From Coprobacillaceae bacterium (GTDB taxonomy: Bacteria; Bacillota_I; Bacilli_A; Erysipelotrichales; Coprobacillaceae), in the NCBI GenBank assembly GCA_963675915.1, contig OY780959.1, positions 420,001 to 452,000 of the forward strand: a stretch of 32,000 nucleotides of DNA. The letters are read 5' to 3'. The notes below the pieces were generated by a model that did no database searches, had not been told where the DNA came from, and saw nothing but the letters and a program-made list of their open reading frames with translations. The position numbers and the translations under genes were made by a program. Shown here piece by piece: positions 2,362-26,423 of this stretch (position 1 is its first letter; every line of letters begins with the position of its first letter).

Positions 2362-3643
2362 ACACAAGCCGCTTTTGGTCGGGATTGCGGCCATTCTGGC
2401 TTTAGGAACCTATTATTTCCAGGTTGTCAGCAGTCATGACAAACTGACAATCGGTCTTTTTGCCGGCAGTCCCTGGTCCAATATCAATTCCGATCTCTAT
2501 GATGTTGTTGATGATGTAATTGCCAAATACAACCAGAACTATGATATCGAGGTCGAGTATATCAATGGAATCCTCAAAGACGATTATGAAAACTATCTCA
2601 ACAGTATGATTGTAGCTGGTCATGAACCGGATATCTATCTGATTCTTGATGATGACTTCCCGATACTGTCTGGAACCAATTTCCTGACGCCGTTGGATTC
2701 GTTCATGAATAATGATGCCACTTTTGACTTTGACTATTATTATCCGGCCAGTCTTGCCGCCGGTCAGAATAACGGAATCACTTATGCTTTGCCGGTTGAT
2801 TGCAATCTTGATTTGCTTTTTGTCAATGAAAGCCTGTTGGAGCAGGAAGGAATCACCATTGACGGCCAGCTTGATCTTGATGATTTCTACGATATCTGCG
2901 CCAAGGTTACCCGGGATACCAATGGTGATGGGATGATCGATCAGTTTGGTTTTTGCAACTACACGCTCGATGATGTTTTGGCAACTTATGATTTTGAAAC
3001 ATACGGAGCAGATTCGATTTCACTTGATGTGGCTGCCACCAAAAATGCCATCGAATATTACAAGAAACTAATAGCGATCAACCAGGGCTTCGAAGTCACG
3101 CTCGATGATTTTGACTCGGGTCGGGTGGTCTTTGCCAAACTGCCGTTCTCACAATTTCGGACTTACCGCTTTTCGCCATACAATCTCACCAAATATTCGA
3201 CTTTCAAGTGGGATTGCATCAACTTGCCGACCGATACGGCCAAATCCGGAGAACTTGATACTCTGTTGATGGGGATTTCCTCACGGTGTAAGGACAAATA
3301 CGCGGCGTTCAGGTTGCTTAAGCTGCTTTCGAATGATCCGGACATTCAGCAGGAATATTTTCAACATTCCCAAGGCATCTCCCCCCTTCAAAACATTGTC
3401 AGTTCAGTTGATACGAATATTTTTTTAAACGAAGAGTCGCTTGATTCCGATTTTGACTTTGAAGTCATTGATACTGCCATGGACCAGGCATTTAATCCGG
3501 TCAATATGATTGATTTCAATCTGATCAAAGATCAACTCAGCAATCTGCTTGTAGATGGCTTGACCACCGATGAAGATATTGATCTCTATTTGATGGATGT
3601 CCAACGCCAGATCAATCAACTTTTGATTGCGAAAAACAAATAA
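2354..3643 (+). CDS. Extracellular solute-binding protein (ABC family 1-like), membrane-anchored, with no adjacent permease genes
   Basis: GTG start overlapping the regulator stop, GAGGA RBS 8 nt upstream. N-terminal hydrophobic anchor LLVGIAAILALGTYYF without a lipobox Cys. The body resembles sugar-type SBP_bac_1 proteins. Confidence 0.65.
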   Translation: MNKHKPLLVGIAAILALGTYYFQVVSSHDKLTIGLFAGSPWSNINSDLYDVVDDVIAKYNQNYDIEVEYINGILKDDYENYLNSMIVAGHEPDIYLILDDDFPILSGTNFLTPLDSFMNNDATFDFDYYYPASLAAGQNNGITYALPVDCNLDLLFVNESLLEQEGITIDGQLDLDDFYDICAKVTRDTNGDGMIDQFGFCNYTLDDVLATYDFETYGADSISLDVAATKNAIEYYKKLIAINQGFEVTLDDFDSGRVVFAKLPFSQFRTYRFSPYNLTKYSTFKWDCINLPTDTAKSGELDTLLMGISSRCKDKYAAFRLLKLLSNDPDIQQEYFQHSQGISPLQNIVSSVDTNIFLNEESLDSDFDFEVIDTAMDQAFNPVNMIDFNLIKDQLSNLLVDGLTTDEDIDLYLMDVQRQINQLLIAKNK

Positions 3644-3652
3644 CAGTTCCCC

Positions 3653-3691
3653 AGACAAGAAACAGCAACGGCTGAATCTTGTCTTTTTTGG
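3653..3691 (+). terminator. Intrinsic terminator after the sensor module
   Basis: AGACAAGA (3653-3660) pairs with TCTTGTCT (3678-3685), followed by TTTTT. Confidence 0.7.
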
Positions 3692-3700
3692 TTAAAATGA

Positions 3701-3746
3701 TAAATGTAACAATTTCATGTGATTATTGTAAATGTAACCAGTTACT
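3701..3746 (+). promoter_or_regulatory. Two direct TAAATGTAAC repeats and a cre-like palindrome upstream of the PTS operon
   Basis: TAAATGTAAC occurs at 3701-3710 and 3729-3738 (28-bp spacing). TGTAACCAGTTACT at 3733-3746 contains GTAAC-N2-GTTAC. It fits the CcpA cre consensus WTGNAANCGNWNNCW except that the central CG is CA. Confidence 0.35.
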
Positions 3747-3804
3747 TTTTTCAATTATGATTGATTTGCGCTTGTATTAGAATAAAGGTGCAAGGAGGGA
3801 ATTT

Positions 3805-11920: not shown

Positions 11921-12363
11921 ACGCATCCTCCTCAAAAGACAATCCAGTCACGGCAGTTGCCTGAAAGACAACAGCGTAACTTGGATCAAACAGGAAAGAA
12001 AATATTATGAGGTCGAAATTGGTTTTGGTAATTCTGTGAATATATTATATCATTTGAACAACTTTTGTTACTTAAATTATAGCAAAGAACAACCGTGATT
12101 ACAACCTGACTTCCCGGGATAAGCGGGCTTATTCAAGTTACACTAATACCCTTAAATCAGATAACTGAGGCTTACGTAAAATAATATGAAAAATGTAAAT
12201 TAATTAGGTGTTAATGTCCGGTAAAAGGAGTATAATTAAGATAGAAGAGGGGCCAGCGAATGTTGGGCTCCTTTTGCATTTATAAATGCGGCGCGATAAT
12301 CATATCCCGCTTATCCAGATCATCTTGTCTGAAGTTTCATGACGTTATGAAGAGGTGAATAAT

Positions 12364-13584
12364 ATGAAAAAAACAAACAGATTGAAATTGTTATTAACGT
12401 CATTTATTTTTAGTTTTATGATTATCGGTTCGCTAAGCCCAACAGTCAACGCGGCAACGAGCCAATTGATTTCCCGGGTGGCCACTACCGATAAAGTAAT
12501 TGCCCTCACTTTTGATGACGGTGATGATGGTGCCAATGACCAGGCGATTCTTGACATCCTGGCCGCCAATAATATCAAGGCGTCATTTTTTATCACCGGT
12601 AGAGCGGCAGAACGTCACCCTGACTTGATCAAGAAAATCGTCACTGCCGGACATGATATCGGAAACCACTCTTATTCGCATCCGTATTTCACCCAGATAT
12701 CGGCAACCGAGATGGTAAATCAGCTGACTACAACTGAAAACATCATCAAGAACCTGACGGGCAAAACAACCAAACCGTATTTCCGTCCGCCATACGGGGC
12801 TTATGATTCCAATGTACTTCAGGTAGTGGGCGATGCCGGTTACACCAAAACCATCTATTGGACCATCGACACCATCGACTGGTCAGGCAATTCGACTGAA
12901 GTTATCGTAAACAAAGTTATTGATAATGCTGTTCCGGGAGCCATTGTACTGATGCATACCGGTACCGGTGCTTACAATACCAAGTACGCACTGCCACAAA
13001 TCATCACTACCCTCAAAGCGCGAGGCTACCAGTTTGTGACATTGACGCAGTTGATCAATCATACTTATGACACTGACCCGGAACCATCAACCGCTCCGGT
13101 AAGTGATGCAACCATTGACAGCTGGCCGCTGCTTAAATACGGATCAGTGGGAACCGCAGTCAAACAGCTCCAACAGATGCTGACCTATTATGGCCTTCCG
13201 TTATATGCCGATGGCGTATTCGGACCAAAAACCCTGGCTGCAGTCAAATCATTCCAAAGCAGCCATAATCTGGTCGCCGATGGAATCGTAGGACCACTGA
13301 CCAGAGCTCAACTGAAAACCGGAACGAGCACAATGCCGCCGCCGACTACCACGGCTCCAGTAAGCAATGCAACCATCGACAGTTGGCCGTTGCTTAAATA
13401 CGGATCAGTTGGAACCGCAGTCAAACAGCTCCAACAGATGTTGACCTATTATGGTCTGCCGTTATATGCCGATGGCATATTCGGACCAAAAACCCTGGCA
13501 GCAGTCAAATCATTCCAAAGCAGCCATAATCTGGTCGCCGATGGAATCGTGGGACCACTGACCAGAGCTCAGCTCAAGACCTAG
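12364..13584 (+). CDS. Secreted polysaccharide/peptidoglycan deacetylase (NodB domain) with two C-terminal PG_binding_1 domains
   Basis: Signal peptide MKKTNRLKLLLTSFIFSFMIIGS...VNA. NodB motifs LTFDDGDDG, GNHSYSHP, RPPYG, LMH. Two LKYGSVGTAVKQLQQML...DGxFGPKTLAAVKSFQ modules. Confidence 0.9.
   Translation: MKKTNRLKLLLTSFIFSFMIIGSLSPTVNAATSQLISRVATTDKVIALTFDDGDDGANDQAILDILAANNIKASFFITGRAAERHPDLIKKIVTAGHDIGNHSYSHPYFTQISATEMVNQLTTTENIIKNLTGKTTKPYFRPPYGAYDSNVLQVVGDAGYTKTIYWTIDTIDWSGNSTEVIVNKVIDNAVPGAIVLMHTGTGAYNTKYALPQIITTLKARGYQFVTLTQLINHTYDTDPEPSTAPVSDATIDSWPLLKYGSVGTAVKQLQQMLTYYGLPLYADGVFGPKTLAAVKSFQSSHNLVADGIVGPLTRAQLKTGTSTMPPPTTTAPVSNATIDSWPLLKYGSVGTAVKQLQQMLTYYGLPLYADGIFGPKTLAAVKSFQSSHNLVADGIVGPLTRAQLKT
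13093..13581 (+). repeat. Intragenic tandem duplication of a 228-nt PG-binding module
   Basis: 13093-13320 versus 13354-13581: 16 differences in 228 nt by direct codon-by-codon comparison. Of these, 14 are synonymous and 2 conservative (D to N, V to I). Confidence 0.95.
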
Positions 13585-15181: not shown

Positions 15182-15225
15182 AAGACCGGAATCCATGGCT
15201 ATGTTAGGATTCCGGTCTTGTTTTT
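15182..15225. terminator. Bidirectional intrinsic terminator between convergent operons
   Basis: A 13-bp perfect stem, AAGACCGGAATCC (15182-15194) with GGATTCCGGTCTT (15207-15219). T-run downstream, A-rich upstream. Confidence 0.85.
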
Positions 15226-15248: not shown

Positions 15249-16202
15249 TCATTTTTCTTCGTGGTAGCCATTGGCGGTGAAATATTCCAGCACCCGCATC
15301 GCACGCAAAGTGTTCCACCGACTGGGTTGGCCGGCCTTTTCCATCTGGAAATGAAGGGCACTGCCGGGATAATGGGCGGGCACTTTCCAGCGACCGTCTT
15401 TAAGCTGTTTTTTCCGGACAATCTCCAGGGCTTCTTTCATCCGGGGATCATAGGGCGCTTGGGCAGTTCGAAAATAATCCAAGGCCCGGAGGATATCATA
15501 TTTCCAACGGGTTGGATAGGCCAGTTTGAGAAATCCCTTATTGATGATTTCTCCGGTTTTGTCAGAGCGGAACAGCTGGTGACATAGTAAAAACTCCTGG
15601 GCCTGAAGCTCGATTGCTTCGAGTTCATCTTTGCGGTAACTGTAACCTTGAATCAGGTATTCCCGGATTCCTTCGAGAATATTGATGGTCGTATGCACCG
15701 AGCTGTGTTTGGCTCCATAACGGTTGAGTCTGCAGTTGAAAGCCCCATCGGGCATCTGCTGAGTGATGACAAAGTCGATTACCGATTTTAGATGCTTGGG
15801 GTCGATCTGGAAATAGCAACCGTAATTCAAAAACATCCCGTTGATGCAAAGGTCGCTTTCCTTGACTGTGACTGCCCCGTTGATTCCGCCATCTTCGCCT
15901 TTTTCATTCAGGGCAATGGCGATAAGGGCTTTGGAGATTCCGGGTGTAATATTGGCACCCAGGTGTTTCAAGTCCAACAGGGTATAATTGGTCGAGGTCC
16001 ATTTGGGCTGATAAAAAGCTTTGCCCCAATGACCCTCGGGATGTTGGCGCTCAAGAAAATCCCGGCCCCATCCTTCGGTATTGATGCGCTGCTTCAGTTT
16101 TTTCAAAGTTCCGGCCTTGGAATGGAGCAGATCCCGGTGAGTCTGATATTGAATCGCCACATCACCTTTAAGCAGCCATTCGATTATTTCATTGCGTTCC
16201 AT
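15249..16202 (-). CDS. Alpha/alpha-toroid repeat protein (prenyltransferase / squalene-cyclase-like fold), function unknown
   Basis: Repeated QxxDGxW-like motifs (HPEGHWG, QQMPDGAFN, KQLKDGRWKV). AAAGGAG RBS. Last gene of the operon. Confidence 0.45.
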   Translation of the reverse strand: MERNEIIEWLLKGDVAIQYQTHRDLLHSKAGTLKKLKQRINTEGWGRDFLERQHPEGHWGKAFYQPKWTSTNYTLLDLKHLGANITPGISKALIAIALNEKGEDGGINGAVTVKESDLCINGMFLNYGCYFQIDPKHLKSVIDFVITQQMPDGAFNCRLNRYGAKHSSVHTTINILEGIREYLIQGYSYRKDELEAIELQAQEFLLCHQLFRSDKTGEIINKGFLKLAYPTRWKYDILRALDYFRTAQAPYDPRMKEALEIVRKKQLKDGRWKVPAHYPGSALHFQMEKAGQPSRWNTLRAMRVLEYFTANGYHEEK

Positions 16203-16223
16203 GGTTTGACTCCTTTCAATTGA

Positions 16224-17333
16224 TCAAATCGTTGATAAAGGATTTTTCGATAACACCATCCGGGTTGGGTTTGGTTTATCAGTTTGAAGATCACCGGCCA
16301 GTCTCCTGGTGAGATCGCAGATCAAATCAGGCAAGGCGATTACGTCTTCAAAGGCTAGCGGACTCATCAAGCAGATCTGGACACAGTTGCTGGAAACTAG
16401 ATATTCGCTCTGGTAGCTTAAAAGATACCCTTGATTTTTCAGGAGATGACCTAGCTGCAGAGATGATACCGGTTCGGGGATTTTCAGGGTGAAAACCGCC
16501 GGTGATGAGTTGTTTTTGTCAATCATCACCATCAAATTAAGCTGCTCGAATCGTTGTCTTAGCCGATTTGAGATCAGGCTCAGGCGTTTATCAAGCTGTT
16601 TGGCCAGGTGGATTTCGGTTGCGGTTTTGAGTCCGTAAAGCAATCCGGATGAAATTGTGAACGGAATCCCGGATTTGCTGTGGTACATCCCCAAATCGAG
16701 ACAATAGGGGATTGCGGGATTGGCAGCTATTTCATGGTTCGAAAAGATCATTGCCAGTCCGGCATAACTTCCCAAGGCTTTGCCGCTGGTGGCGGTGGCC
16801 AGATAGACGGATTCGAGGTCTAATGGTACGGTCCCAATAGAGCTGATGCAATCAAGGCATAATTTGACCTGGTGGTCCTGGGCTATCCGGGTTATCCGGC
16901 TCAAATCGAACATGAATCCACTTGAAGTTTCACAGTGGGTGGTCCAGATCCAGGAAATTTTTTTTGGTTCACTGCTCAGCTGCGCTTCCAACTCGTCAAG
17001 ATTGAAAATTTCACCCATATTCTTGCTTAACTCCTGGAAGTTTAGTTGCTGGCGGGTGGCAATTGTCAAAAGGCGCCTGGAGAATTCGCCACAGGTAATT
17101 ATCAATCCCGTCCCGTCAAGTTGGGATAGCTGGGCGGCAACCATTTCGTTGGCCAAGGTTCCCGGTCCGGTGATAATCTCGACATTGGTACAATTGACCA
17201 GCTGACACAATTTTTCCTTGGTAGTATTGAAATCGGCTTTGAAGGAATCGCACCGATGGGATATTGGAGTTTTGGCGATGGCGCTAATCACTTCAGGTCG
17301 GATAGCTACCGGTCCTGGGGAAAGGTTAATCAT
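16224..17333 (-). CDS. Class V (fold type I) PLP-dependent aminotransferase, PhnW / serine-pyruvate aminotransferase-like
   Basis: MINLSPGPV, HCETSSG, DCISSIGTVPLD, SGKALGSYAGLA (PLP Lys). The ATG overlaps the upstream GNAT stop by 8 nt (AATGATTAA). Confidence 0.8.
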   Translation of the reverse strand: MINLSPGPVAIRPEVISAIAKTPISHRCDSFKADFNTTKEKLCQLVNCTNVEIITGPGTLANEMVAAQLSQLDGTGLIITCGEFSRRLLTIATRQQLNFQELSKNMGEIFNLDELEAQLSSEPKKISWIWTTHCETSSGFMFDLSRITRIAQDHQVKLCLDCISSIGTVPLDLESVYLATATSGKALGSYAGLAMIFSNHEIAANPAIPYCLDLGMYHSKSGIPFTISSGLLYGLKTATEIHLAKQLDKRLSLISNRLRQRFEQLNLMVMIDKNNSSPAVFTLKIPEPVSSLQLGHLLKNQGYLLSYQSEYLVSSNCVQICLMSPLAFEDVIALPDLICDLTRRLAGDLQTDKPNPTRMVLSKNPLSTI

Positions 17334-17898
17334 TGTTAGAACCTCCCAGGTTTTTAGTGAAAAAATAGCTCAGACTCTTTTGGAGATTCTCGAGGGTCAG
17401 ATACATCGGTTGGTAATAGGCTCCTTCTTTGCCGACAAGCTGGTAGAAGGGGATGAATCCGATGTGGCTATAGAGCCGGATCTGCCGGGTGGTGCCGGAG
17501 ATGATGCAATAGTCAAAAGATTGTTGCAGGCATACTTCAAGCAGTTTTTCGCTAAGGCCAAAAAACACGGTTCCCTGACGATAGTCTTTCTTGATTGAAA
17601 GCAGCCGGATCTCGCAGATTTTCTTTTTTTCCGGCAAATAACTGTCCAAATCCGGGATTTTATGATCAAGAGAAAACGGCCGTTGTCCCCGAAGCGCCAG
17701 CATCCCGACCAGTTCCTGATCATCCTTGGCGATGATATAAGTGTTTTGATGGTGGAATTTGTCAATCAGCTGCTTTTGGGTGTTGATTTCATGTTGGGGA
17801 ATCTCCTCGACGAAAGTCTCGTAATTTAGGGCATGGATAGCCTCATACTCCTGCGGGGTATCGGCAATTTTATAGATGAATTTGTCATTGATAATCAT
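17326..17898 (-). CDS. GNAT-fold N-acyltransferase resembling N-acyl amino acid synthases (Acetyltransf_5 / OlsB-FeeM-like)
   Basis: DKFHHQNTYIIAKDDQELVGMLALR and CEIRLLSIKKDYR...LYSHIGF fit the DxxD...vGt.Rl...E.sRl.v...yR...Y...GF pattern of that family as I recall it. AGGAGGG RBS. Confidence 0.5.
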   Translation of the reverse strand: MIINDKFIYKIADTPQEYEAIHALNYETFVEEIPQHEINTQKQLIDKFHHQNTYIIAKDDQELVGMLALRGQRPFSLDHKIPDLDSYLPEKKKICEIRLLSIKKDYRQGTVFFGLSEKLLEVCLQQSFDYCIISGTTRQIRLYSHIGFIPFYQLVGKEGAYYQPMYLTLENLQKSLSYFFTKNLGGSNND

Positions 17899-17913
17899 AA
17901 TTTTCCCTCCTGG

Positions 17914-18513
17914 TTATTTTTTTGATTGGAATCGTGACTCCAGATAGGTCTTGATATTGGTTTTATGGCGATAGAGAATCAGGGCAATGATTAAGGTGAA
18001 GTAACTAAGTTCAATCACATCTTCCCTCATGAGCCAGTCAACTGGGATCAAAAGGGCCAAAGCCAAAATCCCGCTGATGGAAAACTTTTTGATCAGGGGA
18101 AAATTGAGCACAAAAATAATGGCAATCACCGCTATTAGTTTTGGCTGATACATTGCAATCCCGCCCAGGATTGCCGCCACACCTTTACCACCTTTGAAAC
18201 CAAGCTGGATTGGATAAATGTGGCCAAGCACGACACAACCCAGACAGCTAAGAACAACCACCTGAGGCATGTTGAAATATCTGGCGATACCCACGGCAAT
18301 CAGTCCCTTGGTAAAATCTATGGCAAAGACCACGATAAAGGCAAACTTGCCAAAAACCCGCAGGGTGTTCAATGCCCCGGGATTAGTGCTGCCCTGAGTT
18401 CTGATGTCGATTTTTTTGAACAATTTGCCATAGTAATAGCCGCCGTTAAAACACCCCAGCAGATAAGCCAGGCCGATTAGCGCCATTGAAAACAAATAGT
18501 TGTCATAGTTCAA
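17914..18513 (-). CDS. PlsY-family acyl-phosphate acyltransferase paralog with a divergent acceptor motif
   Basis: YLLGCFNGG, IDIRTQGSTNPGALN (canonical motif is GSGNxGATN), GHIYPIQLGFKGGKGVAA, YRHKTNIK. A TTG start at 18513 lies 8 nt after GGAGG. The tracked ORF runs to 18552 and ATG 18486 is an alternative. Confidence 0.7.
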   Translation of the reverse strand: MNYDNYLFSMALIGLAYLLGCFNGGYYYGKLFKKIDIRTQGSTNPGALNTLRVFGKFAFIVVFAIDFTKGLIAVGIARYFNMPQVVVLSCLGCVVLGHIYPIQLGFKGGKGVAAILGGIAMYQPKLIAVIAIIFVLNFPLIKKFSISGILALALLIPVDWLMREDVIELSYFTLIIALILYRHKTNIKTYLESRFQSKK

Positions 18514-18649
18514 AAAAATCACCTCCACAGCCAACCAATTATTACCTTGCAAAAACCTATAATCCCATTATAACGCATCTTGGTTGCGCTTACATCCGCA
18601 AACCGGATTTTTTGCCAATTAATTTTCAAAGAATAAGTTATGGTAGTTG

Positions 18650-18678
18650 TTACAACAGGATAATTTATGGGTTATAAT
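18650..18678 (+). promoter_or_regulatory. Sigma-A promoter for the small membrane protein gene
   Basis: TTACAA (18650-18655), 17-nt spacer, TATAAT (18673-18678). Confidence 0.55.
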
Positions 18679-18750
18679 GGAATCAGGTTTTGTGATAGAT
18701 CAATAAAAGGAGGAACCGAAGTATTTTTAGATGAAAAGGGGATTGATTAG

Positions 18751-18990
18751 ATGAAAAGAAATATAATCGGGGTAATCACTTCCGCACTAATTTTCATGTT
18801 GATTGGTTTTTGGGCCGGTCTGCTTATCGGGGCATATATCGGAGGGAATTATATGGTCGACTTTGAATTTGCGGGGGTTCGCGGTTATGAGGCCGTGGGG
18901 AATATCGGGATGATAGTTGGAGCATTTTTTGGACTTATCTTCGGGACTGGGGTTGGTCTCAAACGAGATGCTAAAACCTCCAAATCTTGA
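18751..18990 (+). CDS. Small Gly-rich two-TM membrane protein
   Basis: 79 aa with GxxxG-rich helices (GFWAGLLIGAYIGG, GMIVGAFFGLIFGTGVG). AAGGGGA RBS. Confidence 0.5.
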   Translation: MKRNIIGVITSALIFMLIGFWAGLLIGAYIGGNYMVDFEFAGVRGYEAVGNIGMIVGAFFGLIFGTGVGLKRDAKTSKS

Positions 18991-22018: not shown

Positions 22019-22858
22019 TTAGCTGATAAAAAGTGATTTGTGCCAGATATTCATCGATTCGATTGAACCGGCAATCTGGGTATTGTTTGTCAAAGTGCCA
22101 CCAAAACCATATCCGGCTTTTTTGAAGGTGGCATTCATTGGCAGTGAGATGCTGCGGGCGATTGTATAGACCGTTTTAATTCCCGATTGTCTCATCTCTT
22201 GCTCCATTCTTGCCAAAAGATGGCGGGCCAGTTTTTTACCGCGATGACCACTCAGTACCGCAAAATCGGTCATTTCGGCGGCTTGATCTTTTTGCGCCAC
22301 CTCGCAGTTTCCAATTCCAACGAGACGTCCCTGGTGGAAAGCACCGAAATAACGGCAGCCCTCGGCCATGGTTTTTTTAAGATATTCCGGGTCAAAGATG
22401 TCAAAAGGATAAGTGGTAAAAACCTGTTTGAAAACAGCCGCCATTTCCGGAATATGGGTCTCATCGATTCTTGATATTTCATACGCGTCATCAAGCGGTC
22501 CCAATATATCCGGTTGGATGTTTTCTAACTTCTTGAAAACTTCATCGATTGCAGGGCTGCGGTATTTCCGGGTTTTCTTCAGAAACTTGGACATGAAGAC
22601 CGCATCGTCTTGGCCATTTTTGTAATTGGGAATCGCAGCTTCCTGAAGATATCCATAATCTTGGAGGAAGTGTTGCTGATCGGGACTTGCTTTGATGATT
22701 ATTTTCGAATAGTTGTGGTAATGGGCCAACGACTCCAGATTGGCAAGAATTTTGTCATTGCTTTTGCAAAGATAACCCATCAAATAGACCCGGTTGCTGA
22801 CTTTGCCGTGATGGATTTTGAAGTTGTCCAGTTTTCTGATTGTGTCTGTCGGGCTCAT
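22019..22858 (-). CDS. ablB: Beta-lysine N6-acetyltransferase (AblB/YodP-like GNAT)
   Basis: 279 aa, C-terminal GNAT core (GRLVGIG...[15 protein letters not shown]). ATGA overlap with kamA. The pairing with a lysine 2,3-aminomutase is the known ablAB / kamA-yodP arrangement. Confidence 0.75.
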
Positions 22859-24105
22859 CGGGAATCCTCGCTTGGAGTCAGCGTTATAGTTTCGTGGTTA
22901 TCCGAAAGCAGTCGTTCAATTCCAATTGACTTGTAATTCTGGTTCTTGTCGTATTTGAATTGCAGATTACAAGTATTGCATTTCAAGTCGCAATAGTTAT
23001 GTTCGTAATTTGCCGGCTCTTCATAAGTTGTAATGACTCCTTCATAGTTTCTTAGAATCACCTTGTTGGTCGACCACGACATTAGATAGTTGGGCATGAT
23101 CGGTATTTTTCCACCACCGCCGGGAGCATCGATGACATAGGTAGGAACCGCAAATCCGCTGGTGTGGCCGCGCAGACTCTCCATGATTTCAATCCCTTTT
23201 CCGACACTGGTACGGAAATGTTCAAGTCCTTCGGAAAGATCGCACTGGTAAAGATAATAAGGGCGAACCCGATGGGAAACGAGCTTTTGAACCAGTTTCT
23301 TCATGATTTTTGAACAGTCGTTGACATTGGCCAACAAAACGCTTTGGTTCCCCAACGGAATCCCGGCATCACTGAGTTTGTCGAGAGCTTCGATAGACTC
23401 AGGTGAAATCTCTTTGGGGTGATTGAAGTGGGTGTTGATCCACAGATTCTTGTGTTTTTTAAGAATTCTCACCAGATTATCGGTGATTCTAAACGGCAGC
23501 ACGACCGGTGTTCTTGTCCCGATTCTGATTACTTCCACATGCTCGATTGCACTCAGGTTTTCCAACAGATATTCAATCATGTCATCTTCAAGTAAAAAAG
23601 GATCACCACCGGAAAGCAATACGTCTCTTACTTCAGGATGGTTTTGGATATATTCAAAACCTGATTGATAATGGTCTCTGTTTGGATTGTAGTCCGTGTC
23701 ACCGACTTTCCGTTTACGGGTACAGTGACGGCAATACATTGCACATACATTGGATACATGGAACAAGACGCGATCGGGATAGCGATGGGTTATTCCCTGT
23801 ACCGGGCTGTCACCTTCTTCGTTAAGGGGATCGGCGATATCACAATTGGAAATCTCCAACTCCCTGATATTGGGGAAAGCCTGTTGGAAGACCGGATCGT
23901 TCTTGTAATCTGATGCATCAACCAAAGACAGATAATATGGGGTGATTGACAGTGGGAACGTGTCCAGTGTCTTTTGCAGCTGGCTGCGATGATATTTTTC
24001 AAACTGCATTTCCAGAATTTCTTCAACCTGATCGATTTTGGTAATTCGATTTTGAAGTTGCCATTTCCAGTCCTGCCATTTTTCATTTTGATAGTCTAAA
24101 TTCAT
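22855..24105 (-). CDS. kamA: Lysine 2,3-aminomutase (KamA/AblA, radical SAM)
   Basis: [11 protein letters not shown] radical-SAM cluster, [28 protein letters not shown]-terminal CDLKCNTC cluster. ATG 24105 behind the GGAGAG RBS. The tracked GTG 24147 lies inside the terminator stem and is rejected. Confidence 0.9.
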
Positions 24106-24135
24106 TAAATCTCTCCATTCTTTATAATTTTTGTC

Positions 24136-24173
24136 AAAAAAAAGCACTCCAACTCCTAATAGAGTTAGAGTAC
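24136..24173 (-). terminator. Strand-specific intrinsic terminator (attenuator) inside the kamA 5' leader
   Basis: Minus-strand RNA GUACUCUAACUCU-AUUA-GGAGUUGGAGUGC followed by U8. The stem is 13 bp including 4 G-U pairs, so the plus-strand transcript would carry C-A mismatches. It lies 30 nt upstream of the kamA ATG. Confidence 0.8.
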
Positions 24174-24738: not shown

Positions 24739-26423
24739 GGTAGTGTCAAACGTTTATGAAAAGTATGATTAATTGATGATAGTGGTATTTGTTATGTAGT
24801 CGTTGGCCATATCAATGATCATATTCCATTTTTTAGGCATGTTGGTAACTCCTTTGAATGCTTCAAGTTCTACAGGCGGTTTGTATTTCAATGAGCTGTG
24901 ATTTCTTAGAAAATTGAAGTACGTGGTAAATAGACACATGAATTCATTTGCCTTATCAAAATCTGTAAAACCATTCTTTACGTAATATGAGAACTTGAAT
25001 GTTCTATTCAATCTCTCAATTATTTGCTTTTGAGATCGATACATCTTTGAAGTTTCATCTTTGTTTTCTAAACCGATTACCTGATGAACTTTGAATCTTA
25101 TTTTGTTTATATGTAAATATTGTTGGGCAGCGAGGTAGATTGGATTGCCATCAACGACGAAATTCAAATCTTCAGGCAGGTCTTCTGGAATGACTGTAAA
25201 CTTTCTGATTACTGAATAGAAAGCTTGAATTGCTGAAAATGTATCTCTTTTCATGAAGATGTTGTAAGAGGTTATTATTTTTCTGACACTGTCACACATG
25301 AAAAAGACATAGGCTTTCTTGCCTTTGACTTTCACGTAAGTTTCATCACCGCACTGATCTACAGTCAAATTGTCATACTGGTAGTTGTCCAACCAAGGGT
25401 TGATCAGACAACTGGCTGCTTCGGCATAGTTGGCGACAGTCTGATGAGATACTTTGACGTCATGAACTTCTCGCATAATCAACGCGGTTTTCCTCAAAGA
25501 TAAGCCGTAGTTGATGTGGTATGTGAGGATTAGGCCCAGTATGTGCTTTGAATTATGGATTCTCGACAATTGGACCTTTGAAGGGGTTATGGTTGCCTGA
25601 AGTCTTTCCAATTGTTCTATGGTAGCACTGAAAACTCTGGTTATGTAGTGGAGTTTGAAGGCGGAAGGATTTCTCTTGTAGAGTTTCTTCTCCTTGCGGT
25701 TCATCATTCTGAGATTGTGCTTGTAGTAAGTACACATGTTGTTAGGACAACGATATACAGTGAAATGTTCACGGGTATGACGTGGATCCAGTTTTACCCC
25801 GCAATAAGGGCAGTAATGTGCCACTTGTTGGATATATGGTTTTCCAGGAACGAAGGCGGTATCGCATACTTTGCAGCGACACTGCTTTGATATTTTGCCG
25901 GACTTGTTGTCATAAAGATATTCGTAAGGAGCTCCACAGTGAGGGCAAACAGTATCTTTTGGTATGTTTAAAGGAACCCGTCTATTTATAGGTTTGGGCG
26001 AGCGACCTTTATGTTTGGATTTATATATTTCTACCGCTTCATCAAATGAAATCGGGAGATTTTCTTCTTTGATGAAAGGAACTGGATCAACCTTGAATTT
26101 GCGGTATTGTTCGCTCATGACCAATGTAGCGGGTTCCTTAGGTAGAAATTTCATTAAAAAGCATTCGGATTTGAAAGAAATTTTATTGATGATGTTCAGT
26201 AATTTGATAATTAGTGATATAATCTTAGCCATGGTAATAGTTCTCCTTTACTTTAGGTTTGGTCACTTACAATTATAGGAGCTATTACCTTTTTTGTATA
26301 ATGAAAAGGCTAAGTTATATGTCAATCCCGGAGGGGAATGACTAAAATAGATAAAAAACCAAGGTAGAATGCGGTTTTCTAGTTAATTATGACTATAAAT
26401 AACTAACTGGTTTTGACACTACC
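24739..26423 (-). mobile_element. IS6-family-like insertion sequence, 1685 bp, apparently intact
   Basis: 12-bp perfect terminal IRs, GGTAGTGTCAAA (24739-24750) and TTTGACACTACC (26412-26423), which resemble the GG..TGT..CAAA ends of IS26/IS257. 8-bp TSD. A single transposase ORF. Visibly more AT-rich than the flanks. Confidence 0.85.
24769..26232 (-). CDS. DDE transposase, IS6-like catalytic core with a long N-terminal multi-zinc-ribbon extension (487 aa)
   Basis: Core GDETYVKVKGKKAYVFFMCD...RD...VVDGNPIY...IIERLNRTFK parallels IS26 DETYVKVNGRWAYLYRAVD...TDKAPAY...NNVIECDH. The N-terminus has CPHCG...CRCKVC, YCPYCG and RCPNNMC CxxC pairs. AAAGGAGAA RBS. Confidence 0.85.
   Translation of the reverse strand: MAKIISLIIKLLNIINKISFKSECFLMKFLPKEPATLVMSEQYRKFKVDPVPFIKEENLPISFDEAVEIYKSKHKGRSPKPINRRVPLNIPKDTVCPHCGAPYEYLYDNKSGKISKQCRCKVCDTAFVPGKPYIQQVAHYCPYCGVKLDPRHTREHFTVYRCPNNMCTYYKHNLRMMNRKEKKLYKRNPSAFKLHYITRVFSATIEQLERLQATITPSKVQLSRIHNSKHILGLILTYHINYGLSLRKTALIMREVHDVKVSHQTVANYAEAASCLINPWLDNYQYDNLTVDQCGDETYVKVKGKKAYVFFMCDSVRKIITSYNIFMKRDTFSAIQAFYSVIRKFTVIPEDLPEDLNFVVDGNPIYLAAQQYLHINKIRFKVHQVIGLENKDETSKMYRSQKQIIERLNRTFKFSYYVKNGFTDFDKANEFMCLFTTYFNFLRNHSSLKYKPPVELEAFKGVTNMPKKWNMIIDMANDYITNTTIIN

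Follow-up and report, generated by a model that had tools for sequence, protein, structure and literature searches.

Do the four genes at positions 15249 to 18513 of the window (the whole 32,000-nucleotide stretch of Coprobacillaceae DNA analysed here) encode an aminolipid pathway, and do all four belong to it? The first-pass annotation had read them as one transcription unit for an undescribed pathway that includes an alpha/alpha-toroid protein. Our analysis supports a narrower version. The first three genes (G1 to G3) represent a diverged, 'split' version of a module from hundreds of bacterial species, whose probable product is a membrane lipid built on a nitrogen-containing glycerol phosphate analogue. 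The fourth (G4) appears to be co-transcribed with them but to lie outside the conserved module.

The layout of the unit was borne out by the list of open reading frames, the ribosome-binding sites (RBS) and the RNA fold. All four genes lie on the minus strand, with a gap of 15 nt between G1 and G2, an 8-nt overlap, ATGATTAA, by which G3 is translationally coupled to G2, and a gap of 21 nt between G3 and G4. A strong GGAGG-type RBS precedes each of the downstream genes G2, G3 and G4. G1 is listed as an open reading frame at 17914-18552 (minus strand); we prefer the start of the first-pass annotation, a TTG at 18513, because the RBS GGAGGTG lies 6 nt upstream of it. This RBS and a TATAAT box are found in the divergent intergenic region (18514..18750, minus strand), which separates the operon from its upstream neighbour (18751-18990, plus strand). 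The operon promoter is presumed to lie there, since a consensus scan of the region gave no strong minus-strand match; the region had no Rfam match either. At the other end, the operon terminator is a hairpin common to the convergent genes (15182..15219), with a 13-bp stem (arms 15182-15194 and 15207-15219) and a 12-nt loop, followed on the operon strand by UUUUAAUAU. It folds with -22.2 kcal/mol (z = -5.6), and none of 200 shuffled sequences was equally stable. The terminator scan showed nothing strong within the operon, only two weak minus-strand matches of 5-6 bp inside G1 and G3, and its total number of matches did not exceed chance expectation.

Gene neighbourhoods were read at 88 loci in all, and synteny was counted over the 80 related species loci among them. 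The conserved unit consists of three genes, encoding a diverged PlsY paralog (PlsY*), a FeeM/LuxI-type N-acyltransferase and a class-V aminotransferase. N-acyltransferase and aminotransferase form one polypeptide in 70 of the 80 loci, in agreement with the functional coupling of G2 and G3 that had been proposed. In 63/80 loci, PlsY* is encoded directly upstream of the N-acyltransferase, the median distance being about 1 nt. The module occurs in Bacillaceae, Desulfitobacteriaceae, Verrucomicrobiota, Chloroflexi, Planctomycetes and Proteobacteria, and the linkage of the three genes holds across several phyla and on plasmids. Its parts can work apart: the fusion stands without a neighbouring PlsY* in 17 of the 80 loci, and 6 (7 of all 88 read) combine PlsY* and GNAT but have no aminotransferase close by. 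PlsY* and the fusion also form an isolated two-gene unit on a conjugative Bacillus toyonensis plasmid, where the flanking genes look unrelated; the unit is therefore a mobile, self-sufficient accessory and not a housekeeping plsY. The operon continues, in 33 loci from named Bacillaceae or Planococcaceae or from unclassified Bacillota/Bacillales MAGs, with an LtaS-family gene that overlaps the fusion at its 3' end. A TMEM164-like acyltransferase gene is found upstream in 9 of these 33 and at the plasmid locus L092. Such neighbours point to a membrane-bound product.

G2 (17326..17898, minus strand; 190 aa) is a FeeM/LuxI-type GNAT and presumably a long-chain N-acyltransferase. Its best Pfam matches are PF21926 FeeM (35.4 bits, cutoff 27) and PF13444 (34 bits, cutoff 22.4), and the best full-length structural matches of its AlphaFold model (pLDDT 91) are BjaI, FeeM (2G0B), LasI and TofI, with TM-scores of 0.70-0.76. 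Homologs (549, about 55% identical) are spread across phyla. The earlier likening of G2 to FeeM is upheld by both Pfam and fold. One could instead suppose that the aminotransferase produces a soluble amine which the GNAT acetylates, for an osmolyte, detoxification or antibiotic modification, with PlsY* unrelated to either. In its favour, G2 also clears two broad acetyltransferase models (PF00583 at 27 bits, PF13673 at 26.6 bits), public records name it 'GNAT family N-acetyltransferase', and its fold is matched at similar E-values by small GNATs, SACOL1063 among them. Such a small-molecule pathway is nevertheless very unlikely in view of the best matches in Pfam (FeeM and PF13444) and in structure (FeeM and AHL synthases), and of the neighbourhood, which consistently contains membrane acyltransferases and an LtaS paralog.

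G3 (16224..17333, minus strand; 369 aa) is a class-V (AGXT/PhnW-like) PLP aminotransferase by PF00266. Its best NCBIfam match, PhnW-AepZ, stays at 116 bits far under the cutoff of 360.8, and the aminotransferases of the module are closest to the PhnW and SerC models, which are phosphonate- and phosphate-handling. Lys185 and Asp161 are present in G3, and both residues are kept in the family, together with an SHR motif that is invariant. Where the AGXT 'RIGHMG' motif has its substrate Arg, all 75 family sequences with a residue at this position have an invariant Gln.

G1 (17914..18513, minus strand; 199 aa) is a PlsY-family membrane acyltransferase (PF02660, E = 1.3e-41), as had been annotated. 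It is a diverged paralog and not an equivalog by TIGR00023, the PlsY equivalog model, against which G1 scores 131.4 bits and other PlsY* 134 and 90.7 (the latter a Bacillus ortholog), all under the cutoff of 137.2. Aligned to Aquifex PlsY (5XJ5), G1 retains the phosphate clamp and the GGKG loop. Residues that bind the acyl-phosphate and the acceptor phosphate in PlsY (PMC5700162) are retained among 158 PlsY*-type sequences (Ser35 in 149, Arg45 in 155, His92 in 157, Lys104 in 142, His177 in 147). The acyl-phosphate 'phosphate hole' and the clamp are common ground with the PlsX/PlsY/PlsC pathway, from which PlsY* differs in its TIGR00023 score, in YY and PQLG signatures and in relaxed Asn37 and Thr41 (Leu in the window). 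It also differs in being always paired with an N-acyltransferase and not with plsX or gpsA, and in that it can be plasmid-borne. The remaining difference is at position 142, which is Gly in 134/158 PlsY*-type sequences versus Ser in 26/31 canonical-like ones. In Aquifex PlsY, the T41A exchange leaves 4.75% of the activity, and Ser142 of PlsY contacts the 2-OH of G3P (PMC5700162). Since the phosphate-site residues are kept and Ser142 is changed, the residue pattern suggests that the acceptor of PlsY* should still be a phospho-alcohol, but one that is different at C2; among G3P-like molecules that a transaminase could provide, serinol phosphate is the obvious choice.

The first-pass annotation had reached a non-G3P acceptor by another route, from the motifs GSTNPGALN and GCFN, both of which are contained in the translation of G1. 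This argument does not hold, as T43 and L48 are lineage-specific and most PlsY* carry the canonical residues there (G, and T or R, respectively).

From gene order, coupling, protein families, fusion, synteny and residue patterns, we infer the following substrates, steps and product. The aminotransferase would turn dihydroxyacetone phosphate (DHAP) into serinol 3-phosphate (2-amino-2-deoxy-glycerol phosphate), or alternatively act on 1-acyl-DHAP previously produced by PlsY*. The GNAT would use acyl-ACP or acyl-CoA to put a long acyl chain on the 2-amino group, and membrane PlsY* would esterify the leftover free 1-hydroxyl using acyl-phosphate. The resulting 1-O-acyl-2-N-acyl-serinol-3-phosphate, an amide-linked phosphatidic acid analogue, would then feed envelope lipid metabolism; the places of GpsA, PlsY and PlsC would be taken by the aminotransferase, PlsY* and the GNAT, respectively. 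We give this specific route from DHAP through serinol phosphate an even chance of being correct. The more general proposal, an aminolipid formed by N-acylation and PlsY-type O-acylation of a phospho-amino-alcohol, is supported as the most economical reading. [quoted passage not shown] Neither an experiment nor a database name linking the aminotransferase-GNAT family to serinol was found.

The pathway had been called undescribed, which is right only in part. The databases searched give the module no functional name, but its N-acyltransferase and aminotransferase half may match a Gemella enzyme. The Gemella N-acyl serinol synthase is reportedly a two-domain protein made of an N-acyl synthase and an aminotransferase (Cohen et al., Nature, 2017), presumably the same fusion as in the 70 relatives. 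With that architecture, the window copy would differ in having separate, overlapping genes. No Gemella protein was among the best 120 matches of the homolog search. Like G2, the Gemella haemolysans enzyme (hm-NAS, gene nas) is a PF13444-type N-acyl synthase, but the conserved unit here includes a PlsY paralog, which implies an additional O-acylation of a phosphorylated intermediate. For the acylation of N-acyl serinols, a 2025 review by researchers of this field considered host enzymes alone (PMC12594153).

Expression of the nas gene by itself in E. coli gives N-acyl serinol (PMC13012048), and GNAT and aminotransferase could likewise release an N-acyl amine in free form, for instance N-acyl serinol, that serves as a signal or surfactant. 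PlsY* would then be a co-expressed, ordinary G3P acyltransferase, for example to balance acyl flux. Its intact phosphate-clamp and acyl-phosphate residues and the 17 loci without an adjacent PlsY* would fit. Gly at position 142 is also compatible with a G3P acceptor, because Ser142 is conserved in only 52.6% of PlsY homologs (Ala in 33%, Gly in 5.2%) and S142A keeps 32% activity (PMC5700162). We still regard a free amine as unlikely. Without a shared pathway, it is difficult to account for the tight stop/start coupling in 63/80 loci across phyla and for the stand-alone pair on a conjugative plasmid. PlsY* is a separate clade with its own signature, scoring below the equivalog cutoff and with Asn37 and Thr41 relaxed, and the LtaS-like and TMEM164-like neighbours suggest a product bound to the membrane.

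In the ornithine and glycine lipid pathways (OlsB/OlsA and GlsB/GlsA), N-acylation by a PF13444 GNAT is followed by O-acylation by a membrane acyltransferase, and this order is the rule for known aminolipids, all of which share PF13444 (PMC11631085). As G2 exceeds the PF13444 cutoff, it might couple a 3-hydroxy fatty acid with an amine or amino acid from the aminotransferase, with PlsY* acylating the 3-hydroxyl in the role of OlsA or GlsA. Such an acyloxyacyl lipid seems distinctly unlikely, however. G2 reaches 13 bits against the OlsB model (cutoff 350), a PlsC/OlsA-type acyltransferase is absent, and the clamp of PlsY*, which is PlsY-type and uses acyl-phosphate, implies a phosphorylated acceptor that known acyloxyacyl aminolipids do not have. 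The module also differs from these two pathways in that its O-acyltransferase is not of the PlsC/LPLAT type and that a fused transaminase would produce the amine in situ.

The window copy of the module is itself unusual. Its aminotransferase is changed at 7 of 24 near-invariant positions and its PlsY* carries T43, L48 and L51. Both being unusually diverged, G1 to G3 may here have shifted or lost function, as judged from residue patterns.

G4 (15249..16202, minus strand; 317 aa) had been included in the proposed pathway. Its 21-nt distance from G3, with an AAAGGAG RBS and without a terminator, would suit a dedicated four-gene pathway in which G4 binds, cyclises or prenylates the lipid, as would its fold: the AlphaFold model (pLDDT 91) is an alpha/alpha toroid, which Foldseek matches best to class II terpene cyclase domains, squalene-hopene cyclase (SHC), C3d and the beta subunit of farnesyltransferase (FTase) (TM about 0.5, E = 2.6e-5 to 1e-3, identity 12-16%). 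This inclusion could not be sustained, and a role of G4 in the pathway is highly improbable. G4 is tied to the module solely at locus L001, from the same species as the window; none of the 87 other related loci read carries a homolog, not even L005 with its 74% identical GNAT. Elsewhere, G4 homologs form a very large stand-alone family (more than 7469 members, 58-72% identical) in unrelated contexts. No match to Pfam was obtained, including the prenyltransferase and SQHop_cyclase models. G4 thus appears to be a passenger peculiar to this lineage, carried at the transcript's 3' end. It shares the toroid fold with terpene cyclases, prenyltransferase beta subunits and C3d, but has no DxDD motif in its sequence; instead, Cys and His residues are conserved.

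Four closely spaced genes on the minus strand encode a PlsY-family protein (G1, 17914-18513), a GNAT (G2, 17326-17898), a class-V aminotransferase (G3, 16224-17333) and a toroid protein (G4, 15249-16202). The first-pass annotation had described them with gaps of 15 and 21 nt, an 8-nt overlap and a 13-bp hairpin, and the open reading frames, the spacings and the hairpin were all confirmed. For G1, a TTG start at 18513 is preferred, with a GGAGGTG ribosome-binding site before it. GGAGGG lies inside the 15-nt spacer between G1 and G2, GGGAGG upstream of the 8-nt overlap of G2 and G3 (ATGATTAA), and AAAGGAG inside the 21-nt spacer between G3 and G4. After the 13-bp stem (15182-15194 and 15207-15219; -22.2 kcal/mol, z = -5.6), the operon strand continues with a U-rich tract. 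Within the operon, a consensus scan detected no strong terminator (its two weak hits on the minus strand, in G1 and G3, are at chance level), and the gene upstream of G1 is divergent. Taking these features together with the short spacers, the overlap and the terminal hairpin, a single transcription unit is the natural reading. No convincing operon promoter was found by consensus scan, and Rfam gave no match anywhere in the window.

We compared the neighbourhoods of homologs. Seven neighbourhoods of G2 homologs contained PlsY-GNAT-aminotransferase triads without G4, which was linked to them only in L001, the 99%-identical locus of the source species. Conserved synteny, proposed as a check of a four-gene pathway, was thus found for the triad but not for G4. 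When one genome per species was scanned, at least 560 species were seen to carry a relative, and locus statistics were taken from the best 80 of these, a set outside which the source species falls. Several "long" GNAT homologs extend into the aminotransferase when aligned, and GNAT and aminotransferase form a single ORF of about 535 aa in 70 of the 80 loci. They are separate genes in 4 of the 80, and an aminotransferase is not nearby in 6. A PlsY-family gene lies directly upstream on the same strand in 63 of the 80 loci (median distance from its stop to the GNAT start about 1 nt), and an adjacent PlsY paralog is missing in 17. Carriers include Cytobacillus, Rossellomorea, Virgibacillus, Halobacillus, Planococcus, Desulfosporosinus, Verrucomicrobiota, Chloroflexi, Planctomycetes and Proteobacteria, as well as the probiotic Shouchella clausii (Bacillaceae); among the best 80 loci, the closest is that of a Desulfitobacteriaceae MAG (60%).

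We take Gemella hm-NAS to be a single protein with an N-acyl synthase and an aminotransferase domain, and the GNAT-aminotransferase half of the module presumably corresponds to this known N-acyl serinol synthase. If so, the fused relatives (70 of 80 loci) would agree with this architecture; the window copy is split into overlapping genes. A profile built from 29 Bacillales fusion proteins matched at least 4053 protein clusters. The search was meant to find the Gemella homolog, and the 120 matches listed were of Bacillaceae or Planococcaceae type wherever an organism was named. NCBIfam holds no model for the GNAT-aminotransferase fusion, and the names given to fusion homologs by their sources are generic or wrong (for example, "aminotransferase class V-fold PLP-dependent enzyme" or "GNAT family N-acetyltransferase"). 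The fusion proteins P0495, P0427, P0431 and P0450 (Virgibacillus, Bacillus, Jeotgalibacillus) are labelled "septum site-determining protein", an evident propagated annotation error.

The G4 protein had been called an alpha/alpha toroid, and its AlphaFold model (pLDDT 91) does show this fold, but the searches proposed for it with PF13243 and PF13249 gave nothing: G4 has no Pfam match at E <= 0.1 (PF13243, PF13249 and PF00432 included), and its sequence has no DxDD motif. Foldseek reported a weak likeness to class II terpene cyclase domains, drimenyl-diphosphate synthase, squalene-hopene cyclase, MstE, C3d and farnesyltransferase-beta. PF13249 is recorded on 1 of the 120 G4 homologs listed. The family has more than 7469 members of about 310 aa, lacks a Pfam model and shows 58-72% identity across Chloroflexi, Bacteroidia and Bacillota. 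C119, C157, H166, H170, H208 and H284 are invariant in it, which hints at a metal site. Two neighbourhoods of G4 homologs are both unrelated contexts. Given the size of the family and these contexts, G4 is, as judged from genome comparison, a co-transcribed passenger in the source lineage that stands outside the module, and we ruled it out as a pathway member. No record matches the G4 protein exactly, nor that of its homolog P0145. Another homolog, P0122, lies in an 11-kb stretch (L089, ERZ21869602:ctg94834l) that is otherwise nearly devoid of called genes; oddly, repeated small ORFs (93 and 73 aa) flank it on either side, and these are the sole others.

G1 matches PF02660 with E = 1.3e-41 (142.8 bits, gathering score 24.1) and aligns over its full length to Aquifex PlsY (5XJ5), whose numbering we use for the active-site residues and whose residue roles are taken from the structure paper (PMC5700162). 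The cutoff of the PlsY equivalog model TIGR00023 (137.2) is not reached by G1 (131.4) or by its orthologs in the related loci L065 (134.0) and L012 (90.7). The diverged PlsY paralogs were defined as a clade by Y26-Y27, G51 and Q103, features independent of the active-site residues that were then counted, and among the 150 nearest representatives of 50% clusters, 101 had at least two of these features. Residues were counted in 158 paralog and 31 canonical-like sequences (cluster representatives and locus sequences). The E. coli and B. subtilis PlsY sequences, extra references in the signature comparison, serve as illustration only.

The phosphate clamp is largely kept in the paralogs, with Ser35 in 149 of 158, Arg45 in 155 of 158, and Lys or Arg at position 104 in 142 and 14 of 158; all three residues are invariant in the 31 canonical-like sequences. 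The same applies to His92, which binds the acyl-phosphate (157/158 versus 31/31), and to His177, which contacts the 2-OH of glycerol-3-phosphate (147/158 versus 31/31). Ser142, the other residue at the 2-OH, is replaced by Gly in 134 of 158 paralogs, whereas the canonical-like sequences have Ser (26) or Ala (3 of 31). Thr41, at the acyl-phosphate carbonyl, is invariant in the 31 canonical-like sequences and variable in the paralogs (T72, R63, K9 and L6 of 158). Asn37 of the oxyanion site is likewise found in 30 of the 31 but gives way in the paralogs to a mixture (N75, S41, T17, A14 and G7 of 158). G1 itself keeps the clamp Ser35/Arg45/Lys104/Asn180, His92 and the GGKG phosphate hole, and carries Leu in place of Thr41 and Gly in place of Ser142. 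In the Aquifex enzyme, T41A leaves 4.75% activity (PMC5700162). The residue pattern as a whole suggests an acceptor that is changed at C2. We dropped the change from Ser142 to Gly as proof of an acceptor other than glycerol-3-phosphate, since Ser142 is conserved in only 52.6% of 7288 PlsY homologs and the S142A mutant retains 32% of the activity (PMC5700162).

The motifs GSTNPGALN and GCFN, read earlier as marks of the family, turned out to be lineage-specific. The family consensus is GSG(N/S/A/T)xGA(T/R)N, and in most paralogs position 43 is the canonical Gly and position 48 Thr or Arg. The description of G1 as a PlsY-family enzyme for another acceptor therefore keeps its family assignment (PF02660, with a TIGR00023 score below the cutoff) but loses the motif argument. 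No other plsY lies within the 32-kb window. A conjugative plasmid of Bacillus toyonensis carries the PlsY paralog and the fusion on their own, as an overlapping gene pair; this plasmid-borne state and the scores below the TIGR00023 cutoff argue that G1 is not the housekeeping PlsY.

The two best Pfam matches of G2 are PF21926 (FeeM, 35.4 bits, cutoff 27) and PF13444 (34 bits, cutoff 22.4), and the same two domains are precomputed for nearly all of its homologs. G2 had been proposed to be OlsB/FeeM-like rather than a small-molecule acetyltransferase. The FeeM side of this proposal agrees with the best matches, but the OlsB equivalog model NF052554 is not matched (13.1 bits versus 350) and G2 also passes two general acetyltransferase models. 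Its AlphaFold model (pLDDT 91) gave FeeM (2G0B) and the acyl-homoserine-lactone synthases BjaI, LasI and TofI as top full-length matches (TM 0.70-0.76), with small acetyltransferases at equal E-values, and a search of its sequence profile against the PDB found nothing significant. The G2 family, with 549 matches, is about 55% identical across phyla.

G3 matches PF00266 with 40.4 bits, and the Schiff-base lysine K185 and the PLP-binding D161 are present in all 76 aminotransferase family sequences. S25-H26-R27, G56, G58, R87, S183 and D213 are, like these two residues, near- or fully invariant in the 76. The assignment as a PhnW/AGXT-type transaminase holds at this level, but not more narrowly: the best named relatives are PhnW/AepZ models whose equivalog cutoffs are missed by far (116 versus 360.8 bits, 72 versus 400.8 bits), and a Gln occupies the place of the Arg in the "RIGHMG" motif of P. 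horikoshii 2DR1 in all 75 sequences in which the residue is present. In AGXT this Arg binds the carboxylate of the substrate, in PhnW the phosphonate, and an SHR motif binds phosphate in SerC. If these roles hold here, the substrate site of the family would be re-modelled, and would thus fit a substrate without a carboxylate, for example a phospho-ketone.

G3 itself departs from its 75 relatives at 7 of 24 near-invariant positions (N81C, R210Y, Y211C, H227I, N230G, R315S and W317C). Other split forms, in L003 and L005, show a similar count of departures at positions partly shared with G3. Specificity may have relaxed or shifted once the genes had split, which would account for these departures. 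The window operon is a diverged member of the family, and its function might be shifted or weakened.

The genes around the module point to the cell envelope. On a 690-kb replicon of Cytobacillus spongiae, the PlsY-fusion pair lies between a gene for a TIGR02206 (TMEM164-like) acyltransferase and an "LTA synthase family" gene. In 33 loci (L012:7571-9406 and 32 others), from named Bacillaceae or Planococcaceae or from unclassified Bacillota/Bacillales MAGs, the fusion overlaps at its 3' end with the gene for an LtaS-family paralog, which reaches 642 bits where the LtaS cutoff is 970. A further copy is found in the plasmid locus L092 (7584-9437), and the TIGR02206 acyltransferase is encoded just upstream of the PlsY paralog in 9 loci and in L092. 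It is because of these LtaS-like and TMEM164-like neighbours that the product would be placed in the envelope.

Other neighbours were seen in single or few loci. In Anaerolineales without a nearby aminotransferase, the end of an ORF falls only a few bases from the PlsY paralog start (L052:1-2253, 4 nt before; L081:5013-5384, about 10 nt of overlap). The L052 ORF is a FAD dehydrogenase (DAO, Fer2_BFD, Pyr_redox_2) resembling the anaerobic glycerol-3-phosphate dehydrogenase that makes dihydroxyacetone phosphate (DHAP), and the 124-aa L081 ORF clusters with it. In an Ereboglobus MAG, a gene of the transaldolase / fructose-6-phosphate-aldolase family (L033:3715-5100) lies 76 nt upstream of the PlsY paralog, a single case. 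In a Bacteroidia MAG without an adjacent PlsY paralog, a convergent acylphosphatase gene (L006:7599-7871) comes right after GNAT and aminotransferase.

On this evidence from sequence and gene context, the PlsY paralog and the GNAT-aminotransferase probably share one membrane-lipid pathway. PlsY chemistry requires a hydroxyl beside a bound phosphate, the partner enzymes would form an amine and then N-acylate it, and the fusion would pass the amine straight to the N-acyltransferase. These three points lead us to propose a route through serinol phosphate. The aminotransferase would convert DHAP to serinol phosphate, the GNAT would form N-acyl-serinol phosphate, and the PlsY paralog would yield 1-O-acyl-2-N-acyl-serinol phosphate. 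This is the simplest scheme fitting the three points, and in our estimate it has an even chance of being correct. A variant that matches the gene order would have the PlsY paralog acylate DHAP first, and the aminotransferase then act on 1-acyl-DHAP. Amination of DHAP to serinol phosphate has a precedent in RtxA (PMC3222319), and the Gemella nas gene expressed in E. coli gives N-acyl serinol (PMC13012048), which could stem from dephosphorylation where a PlsY paralog is lacking. With more reserve than for the scheme itself, we consider it possible that the module makes unrecognised bacterial membrane lipids, namely serinol-phosphate phospholipids with an amide chain at C2 ("amido-phosphatidic acid" and derivatives).

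The Ols and Gls aminolipid pathways follow a two-step acylation logic like that of the module (PMC11631085), and where N-acyl serinols are acylated further, a 2025 review from workers in the field considered host enzymes only (PMC12594153). In the non-subscription literature, queries for serinol and PlsY, PlsY paralogs, and NAS and PlsY returned no relevant match, and neither a PlsY-type partner nor a serinol-phosphate lipid is mentioned. The earlier description of the pathway as undescribed thus fits the PlsY-type partner, but the GNAT-aminotransferase half is presumably known.

PlsY is regarded as near-universal and as having a single purpose, the commitment of acyl chains to glycerol-3-phosphate. 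Were a conserved paralog of it to work with an enzyme that makes and N-acylates an amine, the acyl-phosphate route would prove to feed a nitrogen-backbone lipid as well. Serinol-backbone lipids differ by just 0.984 Da from ordinary glycerolipids, and their amide bond should withstand phospholipase A2 and mild base, so that they could be widespread yet overlooked. If the proposal is true, the GPCR-active N-acyl serinols of the human microbiome would be recast as by-products of membrane synthesis, arising as a shunt or breakdown product of the module pathway. It would also supply a candidate substrate for the operon-linked LtaS-family paralog of the Bacillaceae-type loci (33 loci), which would extend a serinol-phosphate anchor with a polymer or head group.

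Other features of the window were noted in passing. On the minus strand, a lysine 2,3-aminomutase (radical SAM and LAM_C) overlaps a downstream GNAT (22019-24147), the ablA/ablB arrangement for the osmolyte N-epsilon-acetyl-beta-lysine. A 487-aa DDE transposase (rve_3, DDE_Tnp_IS240, zinc ribbon) is encoded at 24769-26232, also on the minus strand, in a stretch of low GC (0.33). It is missing from the 99%-identical L001, where the flanking genes adjoin each other (3213-3792), and it is therefore a recent IS insertion. On the plus strand, a polysaccharide deacetylase (12355-13584) contains two peptidoglycan-binding repeats, each about 75 aa long and almost the same in sequence, which represent a recent internal duplication.
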